Assembly (NCBI GenBank): GCA_964519125.1
Contig: CAZFIS010000001.1
Coordinates: 3,825 to 67,824, forward strand
DNA: 64,000 nt
Origin: an uncultured Gemmatimonadaceae bacterium
GTDB lineage: Bacteria; Gemmatimonadota; Gemmatimonadetes; Longimicrobiales; Gaopeijiaceae
Direction: 5' to 3'
Positions 44,260 through 62,611 of this stretch are shown here, piece after piece. Under the pieces are notes generated by a model. That model was not told the DNA's origin. It did no database searches and saw only the letters and a list, made by a program, of their open reading frames with translations. The first letter of the stretch is position 1, and the number at the start of each line of letters is the position of its first letter. The translations under genes were made by a program, and so were the position numbers.

Positions 44260-44316
44260 GCACCTCCCCCCGAAGCGGGGTGAGCGCCGTAGAGGCCCAA
44301 ACCCACGAATCCGAGA

Positions 44317-46077: not shown

Positions 46078-46138
46078 CTCGCGGAGCCTGAATCCCACAA
46101 GACCAGCCAACGTCCATCATTGATCTGGAGAAGGTCCC

Positions 46139-47626: not shown

Positions 47627-47654
47627 TCGGATTCCCGGAGGCGGACGGGGGCGT

Positions 47655-47673
47655 GGGCCCGTGGTCCGGGCCC
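47655..47673 (+). other. GC hairpin in the tssC-hcp intergenic region (possible mRNA processing, stability or attenuation element)
   Basis: GGGCCCG-TGGTC-CGGGCCC forms a 7-bp all-GC stem with a 5-nt loop, 29 nt after the tssC stop. No U-tract follows. The hcp SD (GAGGAGG) lies 48 nt downstream. Confidence 0.3.
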
Positions 47674-47732
47674 GCCCCTCGCCGTCGAAGAACTGCCAAG
47701 GATGATTTCGAGAGCCACACGAGGAGGATTGG

Positions 47733-48218
47733 ATGGACATCGTTTTGATGAAGGTGAAGGACGTTCCGGGCCAGACGCAGATCAACGGCTACGCGGACTA
47801 CATGGAGCTGTTCTCATACAGCCACGGGATCGCGCAGCAGGTCACGGCCAACGTCAGCAACGCCGACCGCACGACCGGCCGGCCGATTCACCAGGACTTC
47901 GCGGTGACGAAGGACGTGGACAAGGCGACCCCCTCGCTGCTCCAGGGGTGCAACTCGGCGAACGTCTACAGCTCGGTGGAGATCCTGGTGGGCCGCAACG
48001 ACGACGGCAACATCATCAAGTTCTTCAGCTACACGCTGACCGACGCCATCATCTCGTCGATCTCCGTGAGCGGTGGAGGCGGCGGCAAGCCCGTCGAGTC
48101 CATCACGTGGAACTACAGCAAGATCGAGTGGACCTACTACGCGCAGAAGGAAGCGGGCGGCGCGGGCGGCAACGCGGTTGCCTCCTGGGATGTGGCACTG
48201 AACAAGGCTGCTAGCTGA
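47733..48218 (+). CDS. hcp: T6SS inner tube protein Hcp (TssD)
   Basis: 161-aa ORF with GAGGAGG 6 nt upstream. The sequence is Hcp-like: MDIVLMKVKDVPGQTQ..GYADYMELFSYSHGI...GRPIHQDFAVTKDVDKATPSLLQGC...I.W.Y.KIEWTY. Confidence 0.9.
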   Translation: MDIVLMKVKDVPGQTQINGYADYMELFSYSHGIAQQVTANVSNADRTTGRPIHQDFAVTKDVDKATPSLLQGCNSANVYSSVEILVGRNDDGNIIKFFSYTLTDAIISSISVSGGGGGKPVESITWNYSKIEWTYYAQKEAGGAGGNAVASWDVALNKAAS

Positions 48219-48226
48219 GCTTCACG

Positions 48227-48694
48227 TTGCTTCGCGACACGAGGTCCACGCAGGGAGCCCGGGCGCTGCTGTTCGACCGACTGGTCGATCTGGATCCGTC
48301 CGATCCGGTCGAGCAGCGGCCGCTCCGGGTTCTCTCGCTCGAGGAGATGTTGGAGTCCGTGCGGCGGGAGCTCGAGCGGCTTCTCAACACACGGTCTCCG
48401 ACGCCTCCCGAGGAGTTGGAGGGGAGGGAGTGGACGGTCCTCGATTGGGGCCTCCCCGACTATTCGGGCTGGTACACCCGCTCGGCTGTGTCCCAGGAGC
48501 GGCTGGCTCGACTCATCGAGGCGACGATTCGAGCCTTCGAGCCCAGGATGATCGACCCTCACGTGATTGTGAAGCCCACGGAAGGCAACGATCGCATGCT
48601 GATCGTCCACATCGACGGTGCTGTCCGGGTGGGCACGATGCTCGAGCCCGTCTCTTTCCCACTGGCGCTCGAAGGAGGGCCCTCACGGGGGTAG
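48227..48694 (+). CDS. tssE: T6SS baseplate protein TssE (gp25-like)
   Basis: 155-aa ORF with a TTG start 8 nt after the hcp stop. It has LLFDRLVDLDP...SVRRELERLLNTRSP...LPDYS and the GPW/gp25-like C-terminal part. Confidence 0.85.
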   Translation: MLRDTRSTQGARALLFDRLVDLDPSDPVEQRPLRVLSLEEMLESVRRELERLLNTRSPTPPEELEGREWTVLDWGLPDYSGWYTRSAVSQERLARLIEATIRAFEPRMIDPHVIVKPTEGNDRMLIVHIDGAVRVGTMLEPVSFPLALEGGPSRG

Positions 48695-48704
48695 CAAGGC
48701 GCAG

Positions 48705-50525
48705 ATGGCAGACGACGCGCAAGCGGAACTCCTCCGGTACTACCTGTCCGAGCTCACCTATCTCCGGGAGATGGGCTCGGCGTTCGCGGATGAATATCCC
48801 AAGGTCGCCAACCGGCTGGAGTTGAGCCCGGACGAGAGTCCGGACCCGCACGTCGAGCGACTGTTGGAGGCGTTCGCCTTCCTCACGGCGCGCGTCCAGC
48901 GCAACCTCGACCTGCAGTTTCCCGAGATCAGCTCGGCGCTTCTCGACCTCCTGTATCCCCACTACCTCACGCCCGTCCCGTCGATGACGGTCGTGCGCTT
49001 CGAGCCGGATCCGGAGCAGGGGATGCTGACGACCGGGTATGAGGTCCCGGCGCACGCGCCACTGTACGCGGAGGCTCGCGGCACCGGGGGGCTGTCCGCC
49101 AGGTTCCGGACCTGCTACCCGGTCACGTTGTGGCCCCTGCGGGTGACCTACGCCGGTCTCGAGTCGAGCAGCCAGTACGACTTCCTGGACGGGCGCAGCG
49201 ACATCGTCAGCGTCATTCGCATCCACATCGAAGTCGAGGGGATGGCACTCGAAGACCTGGAGATGACCTCGCTCCGCTTCTATCTCAACCGTGAGATGCG
49301 CGCAGCGACCGATCTCTACGAATTGATCTTCGCGCAGCTCGAGGGAGTGATGCTGCTGCAGGAGGGCTCGAGCCGACCCGTTGATCTGGGCTCGGGCTCG
49401 GTCCGCCCCGTCGGGTTCGGTCCGGACGAGGCTGTGCTGCCCTATCCGCGCCAGGCCCAACCCGGATATCGGCTCCTGCAGGAGTACTTCACGTTTCCGC
49501 GGAAATTCCTCTTCGTGGACGTGGACGGGCTGGACCGGGGGATGTCGGGCAACGCGTTCGATCTTCTACTCCTGCTCGGGCGGTCCCCTGAGACGGACCT
49601 GATGATCGACGCGGACACGTTCGCGTTGGGCTGCACACCCGCGATCAACCTGTTCCCGAAGACGACCGAGCCCGTCCGGTTGGACCAGACGAAGTCGGAG
49701 TATCGTCTGGTTCCCGACGTGCACCGGGAGGCCAGTACCGAGATCCACTCGGTACTTTCGGTGTCTTCGTCCATGGACGACGAGGAAGAGCCGAAGCGGC
49801 TCAGTCCCTACTATTCGTTCGGCCACGCGTCGTCGCGCGAGGTGGAAAGCGTGTTCTGGGTGACGCGGCGCGTCCCCACGGGTCGGCGGGAGATCCCCGG
49901 CACGCAGATGATGTTGTCGTTGGTCGACCTCGACTTCGACCCGCGAGTCCCCGCCGGTGAGACCGTCTACGCGCATACCCTGTGCACCAACCGGCGGCTC
50001 GCTGGGCAGCTCCCCGTGGGGGCACGGCTCACGACCGAGATCGGTGCCCCCGTGTCGTCTATCGAGACCCTCCACAAGCCCACGCCCCAACTCGATCCTC
50101 CGCTGGGTGGGGAGACACGCTGGCGGCTCGTCTCGCACCTGTCCCTGAACCACCTCTCGTTGGAGAACGGCCCGGAGGGGCTGGCAGCGCTCCGCGAGAT
50201 CCTGCTGCTGTACAGCGACTACGACAACAAGTCGGCGCATCGGCAGATCAACGGGATCCGCGAGATGCGCAGCCGCCCGGTCGTCGAGCGCCTCGGCAGG
50301 GAGGCGTGGAGAGGATTCGCTCGGGGCACGGAGGTGCGACTGGTCTTCGATCCCGCCGCATTCCCCGGCGCGAACCCGCTTCTGTTCGCGTCGACGCTGC
50401 GGCATTTTTTCGCGCTGTACGCGTCGATCAACTCCTTTACCCGGTTGGTGGTGGAGGACGCTCGCCGACCGGGTGAGATCTGGAAAAAATGGCCGCCGCT
50501 CGCAGGAACACGAGAGCTCCTGTAG
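48705..50525 (+). CDS. tssF: T6SS baseplate protein TssF
   Basis: Track ORF 48618-50525 is trimmed to the ATG at 48705. The TssF signature is LLRYYLSELTYLREMGSAFADEYPKVANRLEL...DPHVERLLEAFAFLTARVQRNLDLQFPEISSALLDLLYPHYLTPVPS. Confidence 0.9.
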   Translation: MADDAQAELLRYYLSELTYLREMGSAFADEYPKVANRLELSPDESPDPHVERLLEAFAFLTARVQRNLDLQFPEISSALLDLLYPHYLTPVPSMTVVRFEPDPEQGMLTTGYEVPAHAPLYAEARGTGGLSARFRTCYPVTLWPLRVTYAGLESSSQYDFLDGRSDIVSVIRIHIEVEGMALEDLEMTSLRFYLNREMRAATDLYELIFAQLEGVMLLQEGSSRPVDLGSGSVRPVGFGPDEAVLPYPRQAQPGYRLLQEYFTFPRKFLFVDVDGLDRGMSGNAFDLLLLLGRSPETDLMIDADTFALGCTPAINLFPKTTEPVRLDQTKSEYRLVPDVHREASTEIHSVLSVSSSMDDEEEPKRLSPYYSFGHASSREVESVFWVTRRVPTGRREIPGTQMMLSLVDLDFDPRVPAGETVYAHTLCTNRRLAGQLPVGARLTTEIGAPVSSIETLHKPTPQLDPPLGGETRWRLVSHLSLNHLSLENGPEGLAALREILLLYSDYDNKSAHRQINGIREMRSRPVVERLGREAWRGFARGTEVRLVFDPAAFPGANPLLFASTLRHFFALYASINSFTRLVVEDARRPGEIWKKWPPLAGTRELL

Positions 50526-51559
50526 TCGAGGAGCTTCGCGAGGGCGCGTACGCCTTCGATTTCTTCCAGGTGGTGCGTATCCTGGAAGCGATGGCTGTGG
50601 GCGCCTCACCCGTCGGCACGGGGTCCGATCCGTCGCTCGAGGCCGTGCGATTCCGCTCCGATCCGTCCTTGGCCTTTCCGGCCAGTGAGATCGTCGACGT
50701 GCGCCTGGGGGAGTTTCCGGAAGAGCCGGCCGAAGTGGTGGTCAGCTTCCTGGGACTGGCGGGCGAGCAGGGCCCGTTGCCGCGCCCGTTCACGGAGCTG
50801 ATCCTGCGACGGATCGCAGACCGGGATACGGCGGCGCGCGATTTCCTGGACATCTTCAACCACCGACTCGTTTCCCTGCTGTACCGGGCCCGCGAGAAGC
50901 ATCGCGTGGGCCTGCGGATCCAGCCGCCCGAAGAGAGCCGGCTCGCAGACATCGGCTTCGCCCTCGTGGGCCTCGGCGCCTCCCCTCTCCGGGACCGCAT
51001 GGGGTTCGCGGATCGCTCGCTTCTTTTCTATGCTGGTACCCTCTCCCAGGGGCGTCGTACGGCCGTAGGGCTGGAGGGCCTGCTCGCGGCGCACTTCCAT
51101 GCCGTGCTCGGAGCGCGGAGCGAGTATGACGGGGGCGTCCACGTCCGCGAGTTCGTGGGGCGCTGGCACGCGCTCGAACTCGATCAAGGGACGGCGCTGG
51201 GTGCCGTCGATGGCCATCGGGAGCTCGGCGTGGATGCCGTCCTCGGTCACCGGGTCTGGGACCAGCTCGGGATGATCGAAGTCGTACTCGGTCCCCTCGA
51301 TCTGGAGAGCTTCCAGCGCTTCCTGCCCGGAGGAGACGCCCTCGAGCCGTTGAGGGACATGGTCACCTTCTATCTGAGGGGTGACGTGGATTTCGTCATT
51401 CGCCTCGTCCTTCGCGCGGAGGACGTTCCCGCGACGGTGTTGACGGCCGGATCCGGGGCCGCGCGTCTGGGTCTGACTTCCTGGCTCAAGACCCGTCCGT
51501 TCCGGAACGACGCCGCCGATATCGTCCTCGGTCCGAGATCCAGCGCCCCCACGGTCTGA
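50489..51559 (+). CDS. tssG: T6SS baseplate protein TssG
   Basis: 356-aa ORF that overlaps tssF by 37 nt. The TssG N-terminal signature is YAFDFFQVVRILE....P.G.GSDP..EAVRFRSDPSLAFPASEI. Confidence 0.9.
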   Translation: MAAARRNTRAPVVEELREGAYAFDFFQVVRILEAMAVGASPVGTGSDPSLEAVRFRSDPSLAFPASEIVDVRLGEFPEEPAEVVVSFLGLAGEQGPLPRPFTELILRRIADRDTAARDFLDIFNHRLVSLLYRAREKHRVGLRIQPPEESRLADIGFALVGLGASPLRDRMGFADRSLLFYAGTLSQGRRTAVGLEGLLAAHFHAVLGARSEYDGGVHVREFVGRWHALELDQGTALGAVDGHRELGVDAVLGHRVWDQLGMIEVVLGPLDLESFQRFLPGGDALEPLRDMVTFYLRGDVDFVIRLVLRAEDVPATVLTAGSGAARLGLTSWLKTRPFRNDAADIVLGPRSSAPTV

Positions 51560-51575
51560 GAAAGCGCGTGCGATC

Positions 51576-54500
51576 TTGCCCTCCGGAGCCAAACCCCTGA
51601 GCACGTCCGAATCGATTCTGAGGCGGGTGTTCAAGCTCGAGCCCGGAGAGGGCCGCAAGGTCCTGCTGTTCGCGCTGCTGGCCGGGCTGATCCAGGGCGG
51701 GGTCATGGTGGGGCTCACCGCTTCGGATACGCTGTTCCTGTCGAGGGTGGGATTCGAGAAGTTGCCGTTCGTCTTCATGGCGACGCCGTTCGTCATGCTG
51801 GCGTACGTGCCGGCGTTCGCCTTCCTCATCAGCCGTCTGGGAACCCCGCGTACGCTCGAGTGGACGCTGGTGGTGCTGGCGATCGGGGGCGGCGGGCTCT
51901 TCGTCTGGATCGCGCTGGCTTCGTCGGGCGGCTCAGCGGAGGGCGGGGTCGGGCTTGTCTACTACGTGGCCCGCATCTGGGCCGATCTGTGCTATACGGC
52001 CCTGTACAGTCTCTTCTGGAACTTCACGGACACGTTCTTCGACATCCAGGACGCGAAGCGACTGTTCCCCCTCTTCAGCGCCGGAATGGCCGCCGGAGCC
52101 ATGATCGGCGGTGGGCTGGTGGCCGTGATCTCCCAGACGATCGGAGTCGCGTGGCTCTACTTGTTCTGGTCGGCCATCGCGCTGCTCTCCCTTCCGGTCG
52201 TGGCCGGCATCAGGAGGCGGTTCGACATCCTGCAGGAGGGAGAGTTCGAAGGCGAGACCGGGCTGTGGGAGCAGTTGAAGGAGACGAGGGTCGCGCTCTT
52301 CCGCTCCCGCTTCGTGCTGATCCTGGTCAGCGCGATCGTCGCGGTCGTCTTCCTGAGCTCGATCAACGAATACGAGTACCTGCGGATCCTCTCAGGGCCG
52401 CTCAACGAGGCCCAACTGGGATCCTTGCTGGGTCGGCTCCTCGTCCTGGTGAACGTCTTCAACGTCCTCTTCAGCCTCTTCGTCTTCAATCGGCTGGTCT
52501 TGAGGGTGGGGGTGGGTAACGTCGCCATCCTCCAGCCGCTGACCTACCTGGCGGTCTTCTACTTCCTCCTGTTTCAGGGGGGGGTCGGAGCGGCGATCTT
52601 CGGGTTCGTCGCCTTCCAGGGCATCCTCCCCTCCATCGAGTACAACAACCAGAACTTTCTCTTCAACGCGGTGCCGCAGGCGGTCAAGCAGCAGGTGCGG
52701 ACCGCCGTGGAGGGACTCGCGGAGCCGCTCGCCACGGCCCTGGCCGGAGCCCTTCTCCTCTTGCTCGCGCGTTTCCTTCCCTCCGTGCGCATCGCCGCGC
52801 TCGGTTTCCTGCTGGCAGGTGGGTACCTGGGCATCGCCGTGCTGCTGAGGAACGCCTACCTCCCGTCTTTGGTGAAGAACCTGAGGAGAGGGTGGCTGGA
52901 CCTCTCACGGCCCGCCGCAGAAGCGCTCTCGGGGCTCGGGTCCGCGGAGGAGGCTCGGCTTCGGGAGATGGCCGCGCAGGGCGACGGCGAGCTCGCGCGG
53001 TGTGCGTTGAGGATTCTGTCCATCAACAATCCCCAGGCGGGGTTCAAGGCGACGCTCCAGTACCTGAAGAGGACGCCAGACGACAGGATCTCGGAGGCGC
53101 GGTTCTTCGTGGAGGCCCTGTTGGAGCGGGCCGGGCCGGATGCCACACGGGAGTTCCTCGACTGGGTCGACCAGGGGAGCGATACGCTGGGAGCGAGGTT
53201 CCTCGAGGAGATGGGAGGCCACGGGCTCATCATGCCCACCGAGGTGAAGGGTCTCGTCCGGTCGGAGGAGCCCGCCGAGGTGGCGGCGGCCGTGGTCGTG
53301 CTGTGGCGGTCGTGGGATCCCCAGGACAGGCTCCTCGCGGCGGAAGGGCTCGTACGGCTCCTGAGCGGCTCGGAGGCGGAGATCGTCGCGGGGCTGCGCA
53401 CCATCGGGAGGCTGCGCGACGAGACGCTGGCCCGGTTCGCGGCCTCTCATCTCGTCGGGGGGAGCGAGGCGGTGCAGCGCGAGGCGCTGGCTTCGTTGCG
53501 GAGCATCGTGACGCCGAACTCCACTGCGCTGGTTCCCGACATCCTCGACAGCCTCGCTCTCGTGGGCGACCGCGGGCAGTACGACGGGCTGGAGGTGCTC
53601 GGGAGGATCGCCGACCCTACGTGTATCGCGCGTCTGCTCGACGTCTCGGTCGACTTCTCTCCTCCCGTGCGGCGCAGCGTCCTGCGGGTCCTGGAGAGGA
53701 TGGGGCTGCGCAGCGTGCCGGCGTCCGTCGCCGTGTTCACGGATCGTCGCCACGCGTACCCCGCGCGCGCGATCGCTGCGCGCTTCCTCGGCACCGCGGC
53801 CAGCCCCCAGCTCGAAGCCTTATGGCCCGGCGTTATCCAGCGGGAGCTGGCGCAGGCCGACCAGTTCCGCTCCTTCCACCGCACGCTGACGGCCGTGTCG
53901 CTTTCCACGTCGGGCATCCGCATCCTGCGCCGTTTCTACCGCGACACGCAGGATCGCACGGTGGACTTCATCCTCGAGGTCCTGCACATCGCCGGCAGGC
54001 TCCCGTCCTTCGAGATGCTGTCGTCCTCGCTGCGGTCGGATCTCCCGAAGGAGCGGGCCAACGCCCTGGAGACCGTCGAGCAGGGTGTGCCGCGGTATCT
54101 CTTCAAGCGCCTGCGCTCCCTGCTCGTGGATCCCGGAGCGGCATCCGAGGCGGGGGCGAGCGAAGGCTTGACGGTGGGCCCGTCGGTCGAGGAGATCCTG
54201 GACGCGGCCCTGCAGAGCCCCTTCGCTTCGGAGGCGGCCGCGGCCGCCGACGCTTCGTGGGTCACCGAGAACCCCGAGATCCTGGCCAAGCTGCGCAGCC
54301 GCCTGGCGGACCTCCGCGGGGAGATCTACCGCGAGACCGTGGTCACCCTGGCGGCCGAAGGCCAGGAGGGGATGACCCCGGTCGACATCATGGACTTCCT
54401 GGCCGCGGCGCCGTTCTTCGACAACCTTCGCGTGGGCGACCTCGAGGAGATCGCCGTGCGCGCGGAGGTGATGGAGCTCGAGCCGGGAGCCTACCTCTTC

Positions 54501-54764
54501 CGCGAGGGTGAGCCGGCGGACCGTGCGTTCGTCATCGCCAAGGGTCGGGCGAGCGTGGAAGGAGAGGTCGTGGAGGCCGGCATCCTCCTGGGCGGCGAGG
54601 CGCTCGGGACGGCGGAAACCTATGCCTCCACGGGCGTCTCGGAGGGGGTAACGGTCGTGTGCGTCCGGTCCCGGCCTGTGATGGACCTCGCGAACGTGAG
54701 CTCTGCGCTGGGCATCGAGCTCATCCGCCATGCAGCGGGAGTGCACGGTGTCCGAGCGCTCTAG
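51576..54764 (+). CDS. Three-part fusion: polytopic transporter-like (MFS / ATP-ADP-translocase-like) membrane domain + HEAT-like repeats + C-terminal cyclic-nucleotide-binding-like domain
   Basis: 1062-aa ORF with a TTG start 16 nt after the tssG stop. Residues ~1-430 contain ~11-12 hydrophobic helices (the opening VFKLEPGEGRKVLLFALLAG... resembles TLC/Npt-type carriers). The middle ~500 aa are helical repeats (ARCALRILS, REALASLRSI, VRRSVLRVLERMG). The last ~120 aa (from 54390) form a CNB fold: FFDNLRVGDLEEIAVRAEVMELEPGAYLFREGEPADRAFVIAKGRASVE...LGGEALG. Confidence 0.75.
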   Translation: MPSGAKPLSTSESILRRVFKLEPGEGRKVLLFALLAGLIQGGVMVGLTASDTLFLSRVGFEKLPFVFMATPFVMLAYVPAFAFLISRLGTPRTLEWTLVVLAIGGGGLFVWIALASSGGSAEGGVGLVYYVARIWADLCYTALYSLFWNFTDTFFDIQDAKRLFPLFSAGMAAGAMIGGGLVAVISQTIGVAWLYLFWSAIALLSLPVVAGIRRRFDILQEGEFEGETGLWEQLKETRVALFRSRFVLILVSAIVAVVFLSSINEYEYLRILSGPLNEAQLGSLLGRLLVLVNVFNVLFSLFVFNRLVLRVGVGNVAILQPLTYLAVFYFLLFQGGVGAAIFGFVAFQGILPSIEYNNQNFLFNAVPQAVKQQVRTAVEGLAEPLATALAGALLLLLARFLPSVRIAALGFLLAGGYLGIAVLLRNAYLPSLVKNLRRGWLDLSRPAAEALSGLGSAEEARLREMAAQGDGELARCALRILSINNPQAGFKATLQYLKRTPDDRISEARFFVEALLERAGPDATREFLDWVDQGSDTLGARFLEEMGGHGLIMPTEVKGLVRSEEPAEVAAAVVVLWRSWDPQDRLLAAEGLVRLLSGSEAEIVAGLRTIGRLRDETLARFAASHLVGGSEAVQREALASLRSIVTPNSTALVPDILDSLALVGDRGQYDGLEVLGRIADPTCIARLLDVSVDFSPPVRRSVLRVLERMGLRSVPASVAVFTDRRHAYPARAIAARFLGTAASPQLEALWPGVIQRELAQADQFRSFHRTLTAVSLSTSGIRILRRFYRDTQDRTVDFILEVLHIAGRLPSFEMLSSSLRSDLPKERANALETVEQGVPRYLFKRLRSLLVDPGAASEAGASEGLTVGPSVEEILDAALQSPFASEAAAAADASWVTENPEILAKLRSRLADLRGEIYRETVVTLAAEGQEGMTPVDIMDFLAAAPFFDNLRVGDLEEIAVRAEVMELEPGAYLFREGEPADRAFVIAKGRASVEGEVVEAGILLGGEALGTAETYASTGVSEGVTVVCVRSRPVMDLANVSSALGIELIRHAAGVHGVRAL

Positions 54765-56805
54765 GCAGAGTCTCCGGGGCCTGACCCTCATGGTCCTCAC
54801 CCCGTGCTTGCTGTTCAGCGCGGCGGTCTCGGGGTGGGTGACGTACAAGGATCTCTACGACGTCATCCTGAACGACGGGTTCGAACAGAAGCTCGAGGCG
54901 GTGAGCACGGGTGTGGCTGCCTTCATCGACGGAGACACCCATCTCGCGTTGAGTCGGCCGACGCGCCTGACCGGGATCGCGGCGGATCCGTCGAAGCCGC
55001 TCCTGTGGGGACTGGACTCGGCGAACGATCGGCTCGTGACCATCGACGTGACGAACGGGGGTGCGACGCCGCTCGACACCGTCCCGGTGAGCGGCCTGAG
55101 CGGCCTCACCTACGACGCAGGGAACGCGCGCCTCCTGTCCGTGCGCCCTGCCACCGGGGAGTTGTTCGCGTTCGCGCCGTCCTCCGTCCGGCCCGTGCTC
55201 GTGGGTCACGTCCAGCCGGGTGCACGCGCTCTCGCCATCGACGCGTCGGGGAAGCACCTGGTGGTCGCGGGTCCGTGGGGGTTGAGAGGCTACACGCTGG
55301 CGGGGCCGAAGGGTGCGCCCACGCAGACCTGGACGAGCGAGACGAGCGTCGAAGCCGTCGCGGTGTCGCCTCGGACCGGAGCCTTGTACGGACTCCGGGG
55401 AGACGGGAGCGTCCTGGTCGCGGACAGCCTGGGCGCGCCGCTTCGGGAGGTGGGCGTCCTGAAGAGTACCGACGACGAGGGTGACCCCGGGCAGTTGCAC
55501 GAGGTGCGGGCGCTGGCGGCGAGCCCCGTCGCCCCCACCGTATTCGCGGCCGGAAGGCGCCTCATGGAGATCTCGCTCGACGACCTCACCGTCGAGGCCG
55601 AGCGGTTCCGGCGGGGGTACCGCAACGAGAATCTCCCGACCTACCAGGAGTACGTGGTGCCGATGCGGCGCATCAGGGACGCGCTGGACATCACGTACCT
55701 GTATACGCAGAACCTGGTGCCCGGGGACTCGATCGAGTACGTGATCGACAGCACACCGTTCGGCCCGGACTATTCGCCCATCGGCAGCCGGGAGGCGCTG
55801 GACACCGAGGCGGACGTGCGTGGCATGGACGCCTTGATGGAGCGGGGCTCCGTGTACTCGTCACGGATCGAGTACTCACCGGAGTGGGGCCTGCTGAAGT
55901 CGGCGTTCGCGCCGATCCTCGGGCACGACGGAAGGTCTGTGGGCATGGTCGGCACGGACATCTCCGTCTCCACGATCCGCGACCGGACGCAACTCGCCCT
56001 GGCCAAGGTCGGCCTGGTCACCGTCGTGATCCTCTTCCTCGGCGGGCTCGGCTCGCTGGCCATCTCCCTGCGCCTCGCCGGACCGCTGGCGGCCCTCCAG
56101 GAAGGGGCCACCCGCGTAGCCGCCGGCCGGGCGGGCGAGCCGATCGAGCTGCCCCGCCTGCGTGACCTCGCCGCCCTGACGAGCTCCTTCAACGAGATGA
56201 CGGACACCCTGACGTCCCTGGTCGACGAGTTGCACGAGGAAACCAGTCGGGTCGAGTCCATGCGGACCCGGAGACACCTGGCTCGCGAGTTGGCGCGGCG
56301 CGCGGCTTCGGCCGATCCGCTTCCCGACGGAGTAAGCGTGGAGTGGCGCGGGCCGAGCCCCCACGCGCCGGCTCCTTCGGGATTCGCCGTCGTGGGCGAG
56401 CCCCAACGCCCCTTCACCGCCGTGTGGCTCCGGCCGGAAGGCCCGGATGCTCTGGCCGGGTTGGCCGACCGGGAGGAGACCGCCTTGCTCGCCCGGCGGG
56501 CCGCGGAAGCCGAGCCGGCGTCGCCGGAGGCGCTGCTCTCGGCGCTGGAGCGGCTCCACGACGGGGAGGGCTTCCGCTTCGTGGTCGTCGACGCCGTGGA
56601 AGGTCGGGTGATCGTTTCCGCGGGCTCGCCCGTGCGGGCCGTCCTGGCGTCGGAGGGAGGGCGGGAGCGGCCCGTGGACCTGGCTCCCGGCCAGGCGTTC
56701 CGGGTGCCCTCCCGGTCCGCGCTCTCGCTCGTCCTGGGTTCGCCCGGTGCAGGGGACGCGCACGGGCCGGCCTGGGTCCTTCGCATGCGGGGGGCGACGG
56801 CATGA
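54730..56805 (+). CDS. Transmembrane sensor: periplasmic beta-propeller-like + Cache-like domains, TM, HAMP, C-terminal degenerate SpoIIE/PP2C-like domain
   Basis: 691-aa ORF that overlaps the upstream gene by 35 nt (an alternative ATG lies at 54790). It has an N-terminal TM helix. Blade-like repeats follow (LLWGLDSANDRLVTIDV, LTYDAGNARLLSV, LAIDASGKHLVVAG, VAVSPRTGALYGL). A Cache-like segment reads YLYTQNLVPGDSIEYVIDS...EWGLLKSAFAPILGHDGRSVGMVGTDISV. A second TM helix is followed by HAMP (AGPLAALQEGATRVAAGR...LTSSFNEMTDTL). The C-terminal ~190 aa align by eye to SpoIIE but lack the GGDFYD and GDVxGHG aspartates. Confidence 0.7.
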   Translation: MQRECTVSERSRQSLRGLTLMVLTPCLLFSAAVSGWVTYKDLYDVILNDGFEQKLEAVSTGVAAFIDGDTHLALSRPTRLTGIAADPSKPLLWGLDSANDRLVTIDVTNGGATPLDTVPVSGLSGLTYDAGNARLLSVRPATGELFAFAPSSVRPVLVGHVQPGARALAIDASGKHLVVAGPWGLRGYTLAGPKGAPTQTWTSETSVEAVAVSPRTGALYGLRGDGSVLVADSLGAPLREVGVLKSTDDEGDPGQLHEVRALAASPVAPTVFAAGRRLMEISLDDLTVEAERFRRGYRNENLPTYQEYVVPMRRIRDALDITYLYTQNLVPGDSIEYVIDSTPFGPDYSPIGSREALDTEADVRGMDALMERGSVYSSRIEYSPEWGLLKSAFAPILGHDGRSVGMVGTDISVSTIRDRTQLALAKVGLVTVVILFLGGLGSLAISLRLAGPLAALQEGATRVAAGRAGEPIELPRLRDLAALTSSFNEMTDTLTSLVDELHEETSRVESMRTRRHLARELARRAASADPLPDGVSVEWRGPSPHAPAPSGFAVVGEPQRPFTAVWLRPEGPDALAGLADREETALLARRAAEAEPASPEALLSALERLHDGEGFRFVVVDAVEGRVIVSAGSPVRAVLASEGGRERPVDLAPGQAFRVPSRSALSLVLGSPGAGDAHGPAWVLRMRGATA

Positions 56806-57206
56806 GCACGACGGTGACCCTGGCCGATCGCATCTTCCTCCTGCGTGGCCTGCCGGCGTTCTCGCGGCTCTACGACAGCGAGGTCGGCTCGATCGCCGCC
56901 GTATGCCGCGTGCGGACGTACGAGCCAGGAGAAACGATCTCCCGCCCCGGCCAGCCCCTCAGGCACCTCTACCTCGTCGCGAGCGGGCGGGTGCTCGACG
57001 AACGGGCTGGACCGCTTCCGGCGGTCTTCGGCGCCACCTCACTCCTCACCGGGCAGCCTCTGGACACGGCCCTGACCGCCGATCCGGAGGAGGGTGCCAC
57101 GTGCTTCCTGCTCGGCCGGGCGCACTTCTTCACGTTGGTCCACGAATATCCTCCACTCCTCGTGAACCTGCTGAACGAGTGGCGGGGCGGGTGGGCCGGG
57201 TCATGA
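56802..57206 (+). CDS. Small stand-alone cyclic-nucleotide-binding-like protein
   Basis: The ATG at 56802 overlaps the upstream stop (ATGA). It is in frame with track ORF 56343-57206. The CNB-like pattern is IFLLRGLPAFSRLYDSEVGSIAAVCRVRTYEPGETISRPGQPLRHLYLVASGRV...VFGATSLLTGQPLDTALTA. Confidence 0.7.
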   Translation: MSTTVTLADRIFLLRGLPAFSRLYDSEVGSIAAVCRVRTYEPGETISRPGQPLRHLYLVASGRVLDERAGPLPAVFGATSLLTGQPLDTALTADPEEGATCFLLGRAHFFTLVHEYPPLLVNLLNEWRGGWAGS

Positions 57207-58570
57207 CGATTCGACTCCAGAACCTGGTCATCATCCCTCCGATCTTTCTGATTCTGGCGCTCGCGGTCGGGTTCCTCGCCGATCGGGCGGCCAGGGAAGA
57301 GATCCTCTGGGGGCTCCACCAGGAGTCCGTGGCCCTCGCGGTCACGGTGGCGGACATGACGGGCGGGGCCACGATCGACCGCCTGTCGACGGGGGATGCG
57401 CTCGCGGAGCGGCGGGCGATGGCGCATCTCCGTGAGCTCGCTGGCCATGGCCAGGTGGAGGCCATCGTCCTCTATTCGCGCGCCGCGGGCCACGCCGTCC
57501 TCTCCTGGGACCGTGACAGCACCGCCCTTACGGTGAAGCAGGCGCTGTGGACCTCGAAGCTCACGAACCTGAAGAGCCAGGAGGTCGTGGGCGGTGTCGG
57601 GCCCTGGGGGCCGTATCCCGAAGCGCTCGTCGCGGCGGCCCCGATCTACGCCTCGGGCAACCCCTCGAACCCGCGAGGGGTTGCGGCCGTGATCATCGAC
57701 GCGAGCCGCATGACATCGGCTACCCAGGCGCTTCGGCGCGACTTCGCCCTGCTGGTGCTACTCGTGACCGGGCTCGGGATCGCGGCGGCGCTGTTCCTGT
57801 CCGTGCGGATCGGGCGGCAGGTAAGAGAGCTGGGACGTGTCGGCGCCACGGTCGCGGCCGGCGAGTACCGGGCTCCGGTCCAGGTTTCGGGGGTGAAGGA
57901 GGTCCAGGACCTGTCCAACACCCTGGGGACGATGGCGAGTATCCTGTCCGACGTGCTGTCCAGGGGCCGTCGCGCCCTGCTGGTCGGAGACGCCTTCCAA
58001 CTCAGCCACAACATGGCGGCTGCCTACAAGGAGGTACGCCTGGACGGTGCTCCCCCGCCCGAGGGATTGGAGGTCGGTTACAGCTCCCTGGGAGAGATCT
58101 CGCCGGGATGCTTCCACGGATGGACGGAAACTCCGCGCCATACGGTGCTCTGGGTCGGTGAGGTATCCGCGGGCGACTCCCTGGATCTCGCCATCGAGGC
58201 CGCCGCCGCGAACCGCGTGCTCGAGCGGGGACTACGGCATGGATCGCCCGAAGAGGTGGCCGGATCCATCTCGAACCTGTTCCACCTTTCCGCCCTCCAG
58301 ATCGCCTGGTTCACGCGTCCGATCGTCGGTGACCCCGAGGTCCGGGTCGCCGCCGGCACGGGAGCCCCCCTGACGAAGGGTGACTACTGCGTGATCCACT
58401 CGTTCCAGTCGGAGCACATGGATTCCCTCTCGGGCTCCCTTTCGCTCTTCAAGGATCTCCCCGCGGAGCAGGCGGCGAAGGAGGTCCCTCTGGCACTCCC
58501 CCGGACGTTCTCGGGTGCCTTGCTTCTCATTCGGCCGTTGCGCCCATCCTCTGAAGGAGACACATCGTGA
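57203..58570 (+). CDS. Transmembrane sensor: periplasmic domain, TM, HAMP, degenerate SpoIIE/PP2C-like domain (shorter paralogue-like partner of 54730-56805)
   Basis: The ATG at 57203 overlaps the upstream stop (ATGA). It is in frame with track ORF 56747-58570. There are two TM helices (LVIIPPIFLILALAVGFL and FALLVLLVTGLGIAAALFLSV). HAMP reads RIGRQVRELGRVGATVAAGEY...VQDLSNTLGTMASIL. The C-terminal part (GLEVGYSSLGEISPGCFHGW...VLWVGEVSAGDSLDLAIEAAAA...AAGTGAP...GDYCVIHSF) has SpoIIE-like spacing with the metal-binding Asp positions substituted. Confidence 0.7.
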   Translation: MTIRLQNLVIIPPIFLILALAVGFLADRAAREEILWGLHQESVALAVTVADMTGGATIDRLSTGDALAERRAMAHLRELAGHGQVEAIVLYSRAAGHAVLSWDRDSTALTVKQALWTSKLTNLKSQEVVGGVGPWGPYPEALVAAAPIYASGNPSNPRGVAAVIIDASRMTSATQALRRDFALLVLLVTGLGIAAALFLSVRIGRQVRELGRVGATVAAGEYRAPVQVSGVKEVQDLSNTLGTMASILSDVLSRGRRALLVGDAFQLSHNMAAAYKEVRLDGAPPPEGLEVGYSSLGEISPGCFHGWTETPRHTVLWVGEVSAGDSLDLAIEAAAANRVLERGLRHGSPEEVAGSISNLFHLSALQIAWFTRPIVGDPEVRVAAGTGAPLTKGDYCVIHSFQSEHMDSLSGSLSLFKDLPAEQAAKEVPLALPRTFSGALLLIRPLRPSSEGDTS

Positions 58571-59289
58571 CCCATCGGATTCGCCGTTCCGCGCGGCACA
58601 CCGTCCTCCTGATCGCCGCGATGAGCGCCTTCCTTCCGGGCACGGGGAGGGCACAGGAGGACTCGTCATCGGCGTGGTCGGTCGGCGCCGACGGTGAGCT
58701 CGTCTCGCAGTTCGTCTGGCGTGGGCTGGTGCTCAACAACCACCCGAGCCTCCAGCCGGAGGTCTACCTGGAGCACGGGAGCTTCGATCTCGGAGTCTGG
58801 GCCTCGTTCCCGTTCGATGGGAGCTACAGGGAGATCGATACGTACCTCTCGTGGTCACACAGCTTCTCTGCGGGCGAGCTCGACCTGAATGCCCAGGACT
58901 ACTACTACCCGCAGTATGCGGGGTTCTTCGACTTCAGCCAGGCCGCGGGGGGCCACACCGGCGAGCTGAGCGGGGCGTTCACGCCCTCCGTCGTGCCCCT
59001 GACGTTCACGCTCGCCTGGAATGCCTATGACGACCCGGACCACTCCCTGTTCGCGAAGGTGGGCGGCGAGCACTCCTTCGACGGCATCGTCGACCTGGAC
59101 GCCAACATCGGATTTCTCCTGAAGAACAGTCCCTACTACTACGGGGCGAGCGCCGGAGACGTGATGAACTACACGATCCGGGCGACGCGGAACTTCTCGC
59201 TGGCCCGGGTGCAACCGCACGTGTCGGTCGCCTTGACCCGCAGCCCTGTGCTTGGAAAGACCCTGTGGGTGTTCGCGGTCGGCCTGTGA
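58567..59289 (+). CDS. TorF-family-like outer-membrane beta-barrel (putative porin)
   Basis: Its GTG start overlaps the upstream stop (GTGA). It has a signal peptide (VLLIAAMSAFLPGTGRAQ). The motif SQFVWRGLVLNNHPSLQPEVYLEHGSFDLGVWASF resembles the TorF/Gcw_chp porin N-terminus (S.YvWRG......P..Q......G...G.W.S). Alternating beta-strand patterns run to a C-terminal aromatic residue (WVFAVGL). Confidence 0.65.
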   Translation: MTHRIRRSARHTVLLIAAMSAFLPGTGRAQEDSSSAWSVGADGELVSQFVWRGLVLNNHPSLQPEVYLEHGSFDLGVWASFPFDGSYREIDTYLSWSHSFSAGELDLNAQDYYYPQYAGFFDFSQAAGGHTGELSGAFTPSVVPLTFTLAWNAYDDPDHSLFAKVGGEHSFDGIVDLDANIGFLLKNSPYYYGASAGDVMNYTIRATRNFSLARVQPHVSVALTRSPVLGKTLWVFAVGL

Positions 59290-59304
59290 CGTAGTCGCGT
59301 GCCT

Positions 59305-59330
59305 GCGGGTCCGGCGTGCGCCGGACCCGC
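59305..59330 (+). terminator. Strong GC hairpin terminating the T6SS-plus-extension operon
   Basis: GCGGGTCCGG-CGTGCG-CCGGACCCGC forms a 10-12-bp perfect stem, 16 nt after the porin stop. No U-tract follows. The next gene has its own AGGAG SD ~100 nt downstream. Confidence 0.5.
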
Positions 59331-59435
59331 GAAGGAGATACCCTTCCGCTCGACCCGACGGAACGTTCGCCCGGCTCCCTCCCTCCGGGTGGCCGTTTCG
59401 CGTGCAGCCGGATTCCTTCCTCAGGAGCTCGATCG

Positions 59436-61871
59436 ATGGCTTCCGTTCGTCGGCAGACATGGCCCGGTCTCGCCGCCTTCGGCGTGGCCCTGTTCGCTCT
59501 CGGACCCGCCCCGGTGACCGCACAGAGCACCGCCACCTGGGTTCCCGAGCCCGTGCGTGGCCAGACCTTCCAGCTCTCCATCCAGAACATCATGCGGGGC
59601 CCCGAACTGGTGGGAGAGGCGCCGATTGGCCTCCGCTGGACGGACGACTCGCAGTGGCTCTACTTCCGCTGGCGGCCGGGCGGGCTCGCCTGGAACGTCG
59701 GCCGCTCCCTCTACCGCCTGAGCGCCAAGGGTGGTGAGCCCGAGAAGCTCACCGGCGACGAGGCCCGCAAGGCGGCGCCGCTCATCGCCCCGGGCGACAT
59801 CTCGCCCGACCGGAGGTGGCGCATCTCGAGCGTGGAGGGGGACCTCTGGCTCGTCGACCGCCGCACCATGAAGACGCGGCGCCTGACACACACGGCGGAC
59901 GCGGAAACGTCGCCGAGGTTCTCGGCGGACGGCAAGAGCGTGATCTACCGCCAGGGTGACAACCTCTTCCGCACCTCGCTCGTCGACGGATCGTGGGAGC
60001 AGCTCACGCGCATCGAGCAGGGGCCGGAGGCGAAGACCCCCCCCGAGCCGACCGGAGAGGCCAAGTTCCTCAGGGACCAGCAACTCGAGCTGTTCGCGCA
60101 CGTCCGCCGGATCGAAGCCGAACAGGACTCACAGAAAGCGGAACGCGAAGCCCGGAGGGCCGAGGAACCCCAGACGCTCTACCTCGACAAGGGAGAGCGC
60201 GTGCGCTCCCTCGACGCGACGCCCGACGGTGCCCATGTGCTCATCGCCACCTATACACCGGCCGCGAACGTGAAGCGTCCCATCGTTCCGGAATGGGTCA
60301 CGGAGGACGGATTCACGCACGAGATCCCGGGCCGGCCTCTCGTCGGCGAGGAACAGGGGACGGGGCGTATCGGGCTCATCACCACGGCGACGGGCCGGAT
60401 GACCTGGCTGCCGATCGCCCCGGGCGACTACAAGGGGAGCGGCGAGCCGCGCCCGGTGAACGCAGGGTGGAACGACGCCGGCACGATGGGCTTCGTCCTG
60501 TCGCGCTCCTTCGACAACAAGGACTGGTGGCTCTGGTCGGTGGATCCGTCGAGCGGCGACGTCACGCTCGTGGACCACCTCCACGACGACGCCTGGGTCG
60601 GCGGGCCGTGCTTCGGCTGCGTCGGGTTCGTGCCGGGCACGAAGCGCATCTGGTACGTGAGCGAGGCCACCGGCTGGGCGCAGCTGTACTCCGTGAACCC
60701 GGACGGGACGGACCGCAAGGCGCTCACCACCGGGCAGTGGGAGGTGTCGGGCGTGGACATTCCCGAGGACCGCTCGGGCTTCCTGATCACCGCGGACAAG
60801 AGCTCGCCGTTCAACCAGAACGTCTACCGGCTGGATTTCGACGGAAAGGATTTCCGCGCCGTCACCCGGGGTGACGGGCGGTATACGGTGACGCCGTCTC
60901 CCGACGGACGCCGGCTCGCGCTCGTGCACGACGTCGCGAACCGACCTCAGGAGCTCTTCCTCGCGGACGCGAAGAGCCCCATGACGATGACCCAGGTGAC
61001 GCACTCGCCGACGAAGGAGTGGCTCACCTTCCCGTGGATCAAGCCCGAGATCATCCACTTCCAGGCACGGGACGGGGTGATGGTCCCGGCGCGCATCTAC
61101 CGCCCCTCCGACATGGGGGCCAAGCCGAATGGCGCGGCCGTGATCTTCGTGCACGGGGCCGGTTACCTGCACAACGTCCACAATTACTGGTCCGACTACT
61201 ACCGCGAGTACATGTTCAACCACTTCCTCGCGGCGAGCGGCTACACGGTGCTCGACATCGACTATCGTGGATCCGCGGGCTACGGGCGTGATTGGCGCAC
61301 CGCCATCTACGAGTGGATGGGTGGCAAGGACATGAGCGATCAGGTGGACGGAGCGCACTGGCTCGTGTCGCACGAGGGCGTCGACCCCCGTCGTATCGGC
61401 ATGTACGGGGGCTCGTACGGCGGGTTCATGACCGAGATGTCGATGTTCACCGCGGGCGAGACGTTCAGGGCCGGCGCGGCGCTCCGCTCGGTGACGGACT
61501 GGGCGCACTACAACCACGGTTACACGAGCGACATCCTGAACCTGCCGCAAAACGATTCCGCTGCGTACAAGAGGTCGTCACCGATCTACTTCGCGCAGAA
61601 CCTGCGTCCCGACCAATACCTGCTCATCCTGCACGGCATGGTGGACACCAACGTCCACTTCTCGGACGACGTGCGCCTCGTGCAGCGCCTCATCGAGCTC
61701 GGCAAGGAGAACTGGGAGTTCCAGCCGTATCCCGTCGAGAGTCACGGCTTCGTGGAGCCCACATCGTGGACGGACGAGTACCGCCGGATCTTCGAGCTCT
61801 TTGAGCGGACGATCAGCAAGCCCGGGTGCACCGAGAACGGCGGGCTGTGCGCGGTGCCGCGCGGCCGATAG
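59436..61871 (+). CDS. S9-family serine peptidase (prolyl oligopeptidase / DPP-like) with N-terminal beta-propeller
   Basis: Track ORF 59316-61871 is trimmed to the ATG at 59436 (MASVRRQTWPGLAAFGVALFALGPAPVTAQ), with AGGAG upstream. Propeller motifs are ISPDRRW, FSADGKS, ATPDGAH and PSPDGRR. The catalytic triad context is GMYGGSYGGFMT (Ser), LILHGMVDTNV (Asp) and YPVESHGF (His). Confidence 0.9.
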   Translation: MASVRRQTWPGLAAFGVALFALGPAPVTAQSTATWVPEPVRGQTFQLSIQNIMRGPELVGEAPIGLRWTDDSQWLYFRWRPGGLAWNVGRSLYRLSAKGGEPEKLTGDEARKAAPLIAPGDISPDRRWRISSVEGDLWLVDRRTMKTRRLTHTADAETSPRFSADGKSVIYRQGDNLFRTSLVDGSWEQLTRIEQGPEAKTPPEPTGEAKFLRDQQLELFAHVRRIEAEQDSQKAEREARRAEEPQTLYLDKGERVRSLDATPDGAHVLIATYTPAANVKRPIVPEWVTEDGFTHEIPGRPLVGEEQGTGRIGLITTATGRMTWLPIAPGDYKGSGEPRPVNAGWNDAGTMGFVLSRSFDNKDWWLWSVDPSSGDVTLVDHLHDDAWVGGPCFGCVGFVPGTKRIWYVSEATGWAQLYSVNPDGTDRKALTTGQWEVSGVDIPEDRSGFLITADKSSPFNQNVYRLDFDGKDFRAVTRGDGRYTVTPSPDGRRLALVHDVANRPQELFLADAKSPMTMTQVTHSPTKEWLTFPWIKPEIIHFQARDGVMVPARIYRPSDMGAKPNGAAVIFVHGAGYLHNVHNYWSDYYREYMFNHFLAASGYTVLDIDYRGSAGYGRDWRTAIYEWMGGKDMSDQVDGAHWLVSHEGVDPRRIGMYGGSYGGFMTEMSMFTAGETFRAGAALRSVTDWAHYNHGYTSDILNLPQNDSAAYKRSSPIYFAQNLRPDQYLLILHGMVDTNVHFSDDVRLVQRLIELGKENWEFQPYPVESHGFVEPTSWTDEYRRIFELFERTISKPGCTENGGLCAVPRGR

Positions 61872-61903
61872 GGCACGTGCCGTGGGGCTTTCGCGACAAG
61901 CTT

Positions 61904-61953
61904 GCGGGGCGGGGGAGCGCGCACGAGTGTTCGGATGCGCTGCCCCCGCCCGC
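61904..61953 (+). terminator. Long GC hairpin after the S9 peptidase gene
   Basis: GCGGGGCGGGGGAGCGC ... GCGCTGCCCCCGCCCGC forms a ~16-bp stem with one bulged G and a 16-nt loop. It begins 33 nt after the stop codon. Confidence 0.45.
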
Positions 61954-61990
61954 GCATCGCGGCGGACACCCAAGGACCAGAGGTGGCACG

Positions 61991-62611
61991 ATGACGATCG
62001 ACTACGAATCGATGCTCGGCGAGGGAATCTCGAGGGGCGTGCGGCGCGCGGCTCTGCTGCTTGCGGCGGCGACGCTCGCGACGGGGTGCGCTTCGTCCGG
62101 GCGAGGCGAGCTCGACACGGGTTCGAGAGGTGGCTACACGCGCATTGAGGGTGACTCCAGGGTCTACGGGTTCGATCTGGGCACCGACAGGACGGCGGTC
62201 CGCCTCGCGCTCGCGGTCGATCCGGGCGCGGCGTGGGCGGCGCTGCCCGATGCCTATGCTGCCATCGGGTTGAAGGGTGCCGGTGTGGTCGACGCCCGGG
62301 GACGTGTGTTCGGGATCCCGGACCGCCAGGTCATGCCCCAGAGCCTCGCGGGCCAACCGCTCGGCCGCTTCCTCACGTGCGGGTCGACCACGACGGGGTC
62401 CGCCGCGGATACCTACGAGGTCCGCATGCTCGCCCTCACGCAGATCGATTCCACGGCGCAGGGGACCGTCGTCCTCACCCGCCTCGACGCCGTGGCGCGC
62501 TCGCGCGGTGTATCGGGAGTGCCTGTAAACTGCTCAACCACGGGGCGGCTCGAGCGGCTGCTCGCGGATTCGCTCCAGGCCCGGGTCGGCCGGGTGAGTG
62601 AGCCTCGATGA
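61991..62611 (+). CDS. Hypothetical lipoprotein
   Basis: Track ORF 61826-62611 is trimmed to the ATG at 61991. It has a lipobox (LLLAAATLATGCASS). I recognised no family. Confidence 0.6.
   Translation: MTIDYESMLGEGISRGVRRAALLLAAATLATGCASSGRGELDTGSRGGYTRIEGDSRVYGFDLGTDRTAVRLALAVDPGAAWAALPDAYAAIGLKGAGVVDARGRVFGIPDRQVMPQSLAGQPLGRFLTCGSTTTGSAADTYEVRMLALTQIDSTAQGTVVLTRLDAVARSRGVSGVPVNCSTTGRLERLLADSLQARVGRVSEPR

Follow-up and report, generated by a model that had tools for sequence, protein, structure and literature searches.

The window considered here, a stretch of 64,000 nucleotides from an uncultured Gemmatimonadaceae bacterium (contig CAZFIS010000001.1), has a high GC content (about 65-74%) and carries a complete T6SSi cluster, a type VI secretion system (T6SS) gene set arranged on a single strand. 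Its last structural gene, tssG, is directly followed on the same strand by five genes, named g1 to g5 (Table 1). The encoded proteins comprise (i) a polytopic transporter-like protein with a HEAT-repeat region and a cyclic-nucleotide-binding (CNB)-like domain, (ii) a periplasmic propeller/Cache sensor with a HAMP domain, (iii) a free CNB-like protein, (iv) a second HAMP-containing sensor, and (v) an outer-membrane β-barrel. The five genes are best read as one copy of a widespread, self-contained and previously uncharacterized envelope sensing and transport cassette, with g1-g2-g3-g4 as its core. There is good support for placing the block within the T6SS gene string of this lineage, whereas a role as T6SS control module is, on gene order and domain content, only plausible.

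Gene junctions from tssG to the hairpin

The sequence-only reading had placed five genes 16 nt behind tssG, and the open reading frames (ORFs) and their spacing agree with it: TTG 51576 stands 16 nt past the tssG stop, a gap which leaves no space for a terminator, and the genes that follow are joined by overlaps. The 4-nt overlaps ATGA at 56802 (g2/g3), ATGA at 57203 (g3/g4) and GTGA at 58567 (g4/g5), the last with the Shine-Dalgarno motif GAAGGAGA just before it, are read directly from the sequence, whereas the overlap of 35 nt claimed for g1/g2 is more likely one of 17 nt. ATG 54730 was rejected as the start of g2, homologue starts aligning with GTG 54748, which faces the initiator methionine of most homologues; g2 probably begins at this GTG, and in the relative L032 the g1/g2 overlap is likewise 17 nt (L numbers denote the relatives' contigs or loci compared with the window). 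The ORFs tested among g1-g5 show the third-codon-position GC bias typical of the genome's real genes, and gene calls on independent JGI and Logan contigs include identical copies of the ORFs.

Two start codons come into question for g1, TTG 51576 and a conserved CTG at 51597. All in-clade g1 proteins have in common the N-terminal peptide LSxSxS..RRLFKLEPGEG, which starts at the conserved CTG and must be translated, since it is located ahead of the first transmembrane segment (TM1) and resembles the N-terminus of TLC proteins. The motif CTGAGC is conserved at the peptide start (window, 51597-51602; L005, 6794-6797; L033, 6800-6803; L032, 4362-4364), and the junction takes three forms: (i) L005 and L033 have CTGA, in which the conserved CTG and the TGA stop of tssG overlap, and from the preceding in-frame stop to the peptide no ATG, GTG or TTG occurs; (ii) in L032 the CTG stands 51 nt past the tssG stop, with no canonical start in between; and (iii) in the window and L004 a TTG or GTG occurs seven codons upstream of the CTG, 16-18 nt past the tssG stop. 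In some lineages g1 probably uses CTG initiation or termination-reinitiation, as judged from these alignments; the ATG starts called for g1 in the relatives were rejected, as they would remove the conserved peptide and TM1. In every lineage the g1 start either overlaps the tssG stop or follows it within about 50 nt, and therefore g1 is always pressed against tssG. The translational coupling of the two genes, noted in the sequence-only reading, finds better support in these stop/start arrangements than in the 16-nt gap by itself.

At its other end the run closes, as had been proposed, at a strong hairpin, which begins 15 nt beyond the g5 stop, comprises an 11-bp G-C-rich stem and a 4-nt loop, and lies in a region that folds at -37.3 kcal/mol (z = -3.84 against shuffles); it is a candidate end of the transcription unit, with an S9 peptidase gene as the next gene beyond it. 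Consensus scans of 44000-62000 gave no plus-strand sigma-70 promoter-like site, with a consensus that may not fit this phylum, and terminator-like sites only at chance level; a sigma-54 consensus scan gave one irrelevant, chance-level match.

Domain architecture of the five proteins

The g1 protein, of 1062 residues, comprises an NTT/TLC(MFS)-like polytopic domain with about 12 hydrophobic segments between residues 29 and 424 (hydropathy), followed by a region of HEAT repeats and, at the C-terminus (residues about 940-1062), a CNB-like domain. In Pfam, the TLC match reaches 24.4 bits (cut-off 21) over a short stretch, residues 127-188 only, the HEAT_2 match is sub-threshold at 15.2 bits, and the C-terminal cNMP_binding match, at 27.4 bits, falls 0.1 under the cut-off of 27.5. 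The CNB domain further matches those of MlotiK1 and PKG in the PDB (E about 3e-4), and g1 orthologues carry MFS_1, TLC, HEAT_2 and cNMP matches. By its sequence, g1 has the architecture of the NTT/TLC-HEAT-cNBD fusions, in which nucleotide transport is a predicted activity only.

These NTT-HEAT-cNBD fusion proteins were described, with their function unassigned, by Major, Embley and Williams 2017 (PMC5381601). The same three-part architecture is found in g1, and the separate cNBD gene noted in that study just downstream of NTT-HEAT genes is here g3; a SAM (S-adenosylmethionine) methyltransferase, reported there as a fusion, here recurs as neighboring methyltransferase genes beside the cassette. 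In g1, unlike the described family, the TLC match is short and the HEAT match sub-threshold. The published account covers single proteins, without Cache-HAMP-pseudo-PP2C partners, an outer-membrane barrel or a T6SS linkage.

The g3 gene encodes a 134-residue cytoplasmic CNB-like protein, which exceeds the cNMP_binding cut-off (PF00027; 29.4 bits against 27.5) and is paralogous to the g1 C-terminus (32% identity, E 2e-7, BLASTP). In the alignment of the g3 family, the positions matching E72 and R82 of CRP are Ala/Val/Leu and variable; the CNB domain of g1 keeps the Gly-Glu pair, and in the T6SS-linked clade other residues stand in place of the Arg found in distant relatives (ETYAST, DVYTST). 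Canonical cAMP or cGMP binding is doubtful because the Glu and Arg of the phosphate-binding cassette are missing from g3 and the Arg is lost from g1. The earlier assignment of transporter-like, HEAT and CNB-like parts to these two proteins thus holds, but the residues that canonically contact a cyclic nucleotide monophosphate (cNMP) are absent. A Pycsar-like CNB defence system was also considered and rejected, PADLOC models matching none of the five proteins.

The g2 protein has about 685 residues (691 from ATG 54730). Its AlphaFold2 (AF2) model, with a predicted local distance difference test (pLDDT) score of 82, comprises TM1, a periplasmic β-propeller (residues about 80-290), a Cache domain (about 303-412) and TM2, followed by a HAMP domain, a coiled coil and a poorly conserved C-terminal α/β domain (535-687). 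The propeller is confirmed by profile-to-PDB search and by Foldseek, and the HAMP match in Pfam scores 24.9 bits, just under the cut-off of 25. The Cache-TM-HAMP portion aligns in hhalign (probability 95.7%) with a genuine Cache-HAMP-SpoIIE protein of L019, and the alignment ends where the SpoIIE domain of the latter begins. The C-terminal domain is possibly a degenerate PP2C-like fold: it aligns weakly and in register with the C-terminus of g4 (hhalign E 0.0018, probability 15%). BLASTP finds the HAMP region alone in common between g2 and g4, and Foldseek with the full g2 model is dominated by propeller matches that mask the C-terminal domain.

The g4 protein (455 residues), with a weak HAMP match in Pfam, is modeled (AF2, pLDDT 73; C-terminal domain 73-92) as TM1, a periplasmic sCache/PAS-like domain, TM2, HAMP and an α/β domain, its sensor domain resembling in structure those of WalK, DcuS and CitA (Foldseek). 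The best non-sensor match of its C-terminal domain is the RsbU PP2C domain of Rv1364c (3ke6_B; Foldseek E 4.5e-4, probability 1.0). Both sensor calls, the propeller/Cache plus HAMP of g2 and the TM-HAMP architecture of g4, are borne out by the AF2 models. The SpoIIE-like label that both proteins had been given survives for g4 only, and at the level of the fold: Pfam SpoIIE (PF07228) matches neither g2 nor g4 at E <= 1, the same model recognizing the true SpoIIE protein of L019 with E 7e-51; Pfam and NCBIfam searches for SpoIIE/PP2C return HAMP-region matches only; and the g4 family aligns with a true SpoIIE protein at an hhalign probability of 0.1%. The strand and helix order of two true SpoIIE domains lines up with g4 homologues of all phyla, and in this alignment, whose residue equivalences are inferred at low identity, the window g4 reads PGCFHG for GGDLYD, GEV for GDV (a position not conserved), HSF for TDG, and G for DDxT. 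The metal-binding aspartates of GDVsGKG, TDG and DDxT are missing from every g4 of all phyla, and in the clade of the window a Cys takes the place of the GGD aspartate. As the PP2C fold is present and the catalytic aspartates are missing, g4 is a pseudo-phosphatase.

A known architecture close to theirs is that of the membrane-bound RsbU/SiaA HAMP-SpoIIE phosphatases of partner-switching systems (SiaA in P. aeruginosa), with which g4 has the TM-sensor-HAMP-PP2C-fold plan in common; both g2 and g4 match NCBIfam SiaA across the HAMP region. Compared to these phosphatases, g4 has neither the catalytic aspartates nor a Pfam SpoIIE match, and the locus has no STAS or anti-sigma partner. A cAMP/cGMP-responsive phospho-relay, in which the CNB domains bind a cNMP and the SpoIIE-like domains dephosphorylate a partner in the manner of RsbU/SiaA, as an analogue of PppA acting on Fha, would account for the CNB-fold matches of g1 and g3, the SpoIIE/RsbU fold of g4, and the cyclases and true SpoIIE phosphatases that adjoin the cassette in other phyla. 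It is very improbable in view of the missing aspartates (GDV, TDG and DDxT throughout the g4 family, GGD also in the window clade), the lack of a Pfam SpoIIE match, the absence of the phosphate-binding Glu/Arg from the g3 family, and the loss of the CNB Arg from g1 in the T6SS-linked clade; furthermore, the searches of the cluster genes returned no cyclase and no STAS, kinase or FHA gene.

The g5 protein (240 residues) passes the cut-off of Gcw_chp (TorF-type, PF09694; 29.4 bits against 24) and displays a signal-peptide-like N-terminus, with a basic region, a hydrophobic stretch and then GRA-QE, in agreement with its earlier assignment as a TorF-like outer-membrane barrel.

Distribution of the cassette and its relation to the T6SS

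A word-indexed search returned about 20 homologues of g2; an exhaustive profile search returned 377 clusters at 50% identity (E <= 1e-30), mostly full length. The carriers of the T6SS-linked form are uncultured soil and marine Longimicrobiales, the closest species-representative genome (L014) and a named cluster member (P0035) being metagenome-assembled genomes (MAGs) with this label, and the g2 proteins of close relatives are 50-72% identical to that of the window. In every contig with a TssG at least 65% identical and with enough sequence, tssA...tssG is followed by g1-g5. The carriers, counted as five lineages, are the window, L004/L014, the L005/L006/L028-31/L034 group, L032, L033 and the fragment L035. 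The gene after g5 is an S9 peptidase gene in the window and L004, a set of small ORFs and then PGA_cap genes in the L005 group, a gene with an Anthrax_toxA domain on the opposite strand in L032, and an unrelated minus-strand gene in L033. Since the following gene thus differs by lineage, synteny is lost exactly where the block ends, and the tssG-g1 junction is never broken. On the same strand, with no space for a terminator and with a junction conserved in the relatives, the block lies physically within the T6SS gene string, as had been supposed. The L032 gene with the Anthrax_toxA match (PF03497), located at 12118-13296 (-) directly after g5, encodes 392 residues; the domain, which we take to be the nucleotidyl cyclase toxin domain of the edema-factor/ExoY type, could make this protein a T6SS effector or a source of cNMP.

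A second, different junction of the cassette with a T6SS gene is found in L115 (GC 67.6%), where g1-g5 are followed by the gene of a 277-residue TM/coiled-coil protein and then by tssH/clpV at the contig end, the genes upstream of g1 not being T6SS genes. The L115 tssH product scores 1237 bits with TIGR03345 (cut-off 885) and is 58% identical to the window ClpV; g1 and g2 of L115 are 42% and 32% identical to the window proteins. As to cluster order, clpV and vgrG open the cluster in the window and the cassette stands after tssG, and in most related loci (L036-L113) clpV/vgrG stand after tssG; the orders of the window and L115 could derive from an ancestral tssG-cassette-clpV arrangement broken at different points.

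The adjacency might be fortuitous, an unrelated operon having been inserted in a recent common ancestor and retained by phylogenetic inertia with no shared regulation. This would fit a linkage confined to T6SSs of one narrow clade (TssG identity of at least 65%), with 37 more distant loci devoid of the cassette, and a cassette that is mobile across phyla and contexts. It is nevertheless improbable, given that tssG stop and g1 start overlap or stay within about 50 nt in all lineages, CTGA included, that synteny breaks right after g5 everywhere and never at tssG/g1, and that L115 displays an independent tssH adjacency.

In other phyla, distant copies with g2 proteins 24-38% identical keep the order g1-g2-g3(-g4). 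Their hosts include Opitutaceae, Chthoniobacterales, Armatimonadota, Azospirillaceae, Candidatus Schekmanbacteria, Thiorhodospira sibirica, Thiohalocapsa and unclassified MAGs, so that the T6SS-free cassette spans Verrucomicrobiota, Armatimonadota, Proteobacteria and Schekmanbacteria; two of the carriers, Thiorhodospira sibirica ATCC 700588 and Opitutaceae MBA3-11, are isolates. Enzyme genes recur beside these copies (Table 1): (i) class III cyclases, as a 7TMR-DISM-cyclase after g4 (L008/L025, L018) or a HAMP-cyclase (L010); (ii) true HAMP-SpoIIE phosphatases (L019, L027); (iii) pyridoxal-phosphate (PLP) ornithine/diaminopimelate/arginine decarboxylases in four loci (L011, L018, L020, L027); and (iv) SAM methyltransferases, including two NNMT/PNMT/TEMT-type genes in L020. 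The catalytically intact phosphatases and the cyclases that Chthoniobacterales, Thiohalocapsa and Opitutaceae encode right beside the cassette resemble output genes that can be swapped. Decarboxylases and methyltransferases, no gene of which adjoins the cassette in the window, hint at a methylated amine made nearby and handled by the NTT-like g1 or the Cache sensors. An outer-membrane barrel usually accompanies the cassette as well, the recurring barrels being non-orthologous (Gcw_chp, DUF481, BBP2); those of the distant copies are DUF481 and BBP2.

Several observations weigh against a role of the block in T6SS control. In 12 loci of other phyla, where the cassette has 4 kb or more of sequence on either side, the window Tss queries match nothing over the roughly 7-10 kb searched, the same TssB and TssC queries detecting homologues at 59-75% identity across diverse T6SS loci. 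Among T6SS loci of more distant kinship, 37 with at least 3 kb after tssG (TssG 38-51% identical) never carry g1-g5 there, clpV and/or vgrG following tssG in most cases; in a set of 80 metagenomic TssG-relative loci the block occurs in only two, with TssG about 66% identical. Since most copies lie away from T6SS loci and most related T6SSs do without it, the cassette has a function of its own, independent of the T6SS. Furthermore, Pfam and NCBIfam searches recognize no output domain in g1-g5, whether kinase, cyclase, GGDEF, DNA-binding or other, and reveal no similarity to known T6SS regulators (Pkinase, FHA, TagF and ABC were searched). The T6SS-linked carriers are all uncultured MAGs or metagenome contigs, the hairpin has no U-tract and internal promoters are possible, and part of the conserved adjacency, seen within one lineage, could be due to common descent. 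The proposal of a module dedicated to the T6SS accordingly largely fails outside the lineage, where homologous blocks stand away from T6SS genes in the 12 loci. The expected co-occurrence is found throughout the lineage, with one further tssH-adjacent copy, but the family as a whole is mostly located elsewhere, and the T6SS-specific claim is narrower than first proposed.

The same observations lend weight to an explanation in which the five genes are co-expressed with the T6SS and otherwise separate from it, as a ligand-regulated transporter: g1 would move a nucleotide- or amine-like molecule, g2-g4 would gate it and g5 would provide passage, with no action on the T6SS. The membership of g1 in the NTT/TLC-HEAT-cNBD fusion family, the occurrence of the cassette without a T6SS in at least 12 loci of several phyla, the decarboxylase, N-methyltransferase and barrel neighbors suggestive of a small-molecule pathway, and the lack of an output domain pointing at the T6SS all favor it. 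Set against these are the tssG-g1 junction, kept in five lineages despite the divergence of g2 (about 50-72% identity) and of the downstream flank, the second, different adjacency with tssH, the shortness of the NTT-like match (residues 127-188), and the fact that transport has never been demonstrated for the fusion family. On balance this explanation appears somewhat unlikely.

Preferred here, tentatively and with confidence falling just short of an even chance, is the reading of the cassette as a lineage-specific accessory input to the T6SS. The swappable enzyme neighbors suggest a sensory front-end plugged into different outputs, among which the T6SS would be the output in Longimicrobiales. 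In a Longimicrobiales (Gemmatimonadota) lineage, the cassette has been joined to the 3' end of the T6SS operon, where it is tightly coupled to tssG and inherited with the T6SS. The structure of the genes, the folds of their domains, the topology, the conservation of order and coupling, and the distribution are observed; from them we infer the following sequence of events, in which every protein-protein step, as well as any effect on T6SS assembly or firing, is conjectural. Small periplasmic ligands would enter via g5 and be sensed by the Cache and propeller domains of g2 and g4; HAMP would then shift the state of the pseudo-PP2C domains, which would act by binding, not by catalysis, on g1 and g3 through their CNB-like and HEAT parts, and the signal might pass onward to the T6SS membrane complex or baseplate. 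With PP2C-like domains that are catalytically dead and CNB-like domains devoid of cNMP contacts, any such signaling would have to work by binding, and it would probably take the form of partner switching between the pseudo-PP2C, CNB-like and HEAT parts. A broader version, a novel kinase-free trans-envelope device in which two Cache-HAMP-pseudo-phosphatase receptors and the CNB-like modules exchange partners on a HEAT scaffold anchored by the transporter, with outputs that include cyclases, true PP2C phosphatases, amine-biosynthesis genes and, in Gemmatimonadota, the direct licensing of T6SS assembly or firing, we regard as unlikely.

The TagQRST-PpkA-PppA-Fha1 system is the threonine-phosphorylation pathway of the Pseudomonas aeruginosa H1-T6SS. 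Like g1-g5, it is an accessory set inside a T6SS cluster that spans from the outer membrane to the cytoplasm, and both sets comprise a transporter-like inner-membrane part and a PP2C-fold protein. Nevertheless, g1-g5 display no sequence or domain homology to TagQ, TagR, TagS or TagT and include no Ser/Thr kinase and no FHA domain, the PP2C-like domain of g4 is of the SpoIIE/RsbU type and devoid of catalytic residues, and the cassette is mostly located away from T6SS loci. The sequence-only reading had noted the absence of canonical T6SS regulators, and Pfam and NCBIfam likewise give no FHA, kinase or TagF-like match among the cluster genes. What is understood of post-translational T6SS control comes, to our knowledge, almost entirely from Proteobacteria (TagQRST/PpkA/Fha and TagF); a kinase-free accessory set in Gemmatimonadota, if the preferred reading is correct, would represent another way of coupling envelope signals to firing. 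The T6SS aside, a multi-phylum cassette is now defined around the NTT-HEAT-cNBD proteins, functionally unexplained since 2017, which gives them as partners two Cache-HAMP pseudo-phosphatases, a free CNB-like protein and an outer-membrane barrel; the recurrent cyclase, SpoIIE phosphatase, decarboxylase and N-methyltransferase neighbors make its function testable, isolates included. Literature searches on T6SS with HAMP/SpoIIE/CNB, on T6SS in Gemmatimonadota and on NTT-HEAT proteins found no description of the cassette or of its T6SS link.

Composition of the T6SS cluster and its flanks

Table 1. Features of the T6SS cluster and the five-gene block in the window, and enzyme genes neighboring the cassette in other phyla
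Feature	Position	Strand	Basis
T6SSi structural cluster	30891-51559	+	Pfam and NCBIfam matches
clpV/tssH	30891-33596	+	TIGR03345, 1204 bits
vgrG	33593-35551	+	Pfam/NCBIfam
MORN-repeat protein	35548-36333	+	Pfam/NCBIfam
PAAR-like DUF4280	36330-36719	+	Pfam/NCBIfam
SPOR (peptidoglycan-binding) domain protein	36723-37397	+	Pfam/NCBIfam
TssJ-like lipoprotein	about 37400-37858	+	LSGC lipobox in translation
tssK	37901-39232	+	Pfam/NCBIfam
tssL	39229-40026	+	Pfam/NCBIfam
tssM	40023-44159	+	Pfam/NCBIfam
tssA	44317-45459	+	Pfam/NCBIfam
tssB	45493-46077	+	Pfam/NCBIfam
tssC	46139-47626	+	Pfam/NCBIfam
hcp	47733-48218	+	Pfam/NCBIfam
tssE	48227-48694	+	Pfam/NCBIfam
tssF	48618-50525	+	Pfam/NCBIfam
tssG	50489-51559	+	PF06996, E 1.6e-94
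g1	51576-54764	+	TTG start, 1062 codons
g2	54748-56805 (54730 if ATG start)	+	ORF, homologue start alignment
g3	56802-57206	+	ORF, 134 aa
g4	57203-58570	+	ORF, 455 aa
g5	58567-59289	+	ORF, 240 aa
GC-rich hairpin	59305-59330	+	Sequence; fold energy
Catalytically intact SpoIIE/cyclase neighbors	L019 4108-5715; L027 5022-6695 (-); L018 13775-15229; L008 13835-15220; L010 3939-5432
Decarboxylase/methyltransferase neighbors	L011 4983-6904; L018 3845-5230; L020 2659-3555, 12084-14376; L027 12352-13605; L008 6138-6830; L023 6107-6796

Within the T6SS cluster, four genes (MORN, DUF4280, SPOR and TssJ-like, 35548-37858) separate vgrG from tssK; a 495-residue ORF at 36371-37858, which overlaps the last three of them, was discarded as spurious. 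Rfam and tRNA scans of the window gave no matches. Upstream of clpV, at a distance of about 11-13 kb, lie a histidine-phosphatase-superfamily gene (17295-17993, +) and a PP2C_2-family gene (18950-20089, +), the latter being the sole catalytic-type PP2C in the window; M1 peptidase, MtnA-like and aldolase genes separate both from the T6SS, to which they are probably unrelated. Divergent from clpV, across an intergenic region of 635 nt, is a 1359-residue ORF (26177-30256, -), located in the most GC-rich stretch of the window (74% GC) and displaying only weak coiled-coil and apolipoprotein-like repeat matches.

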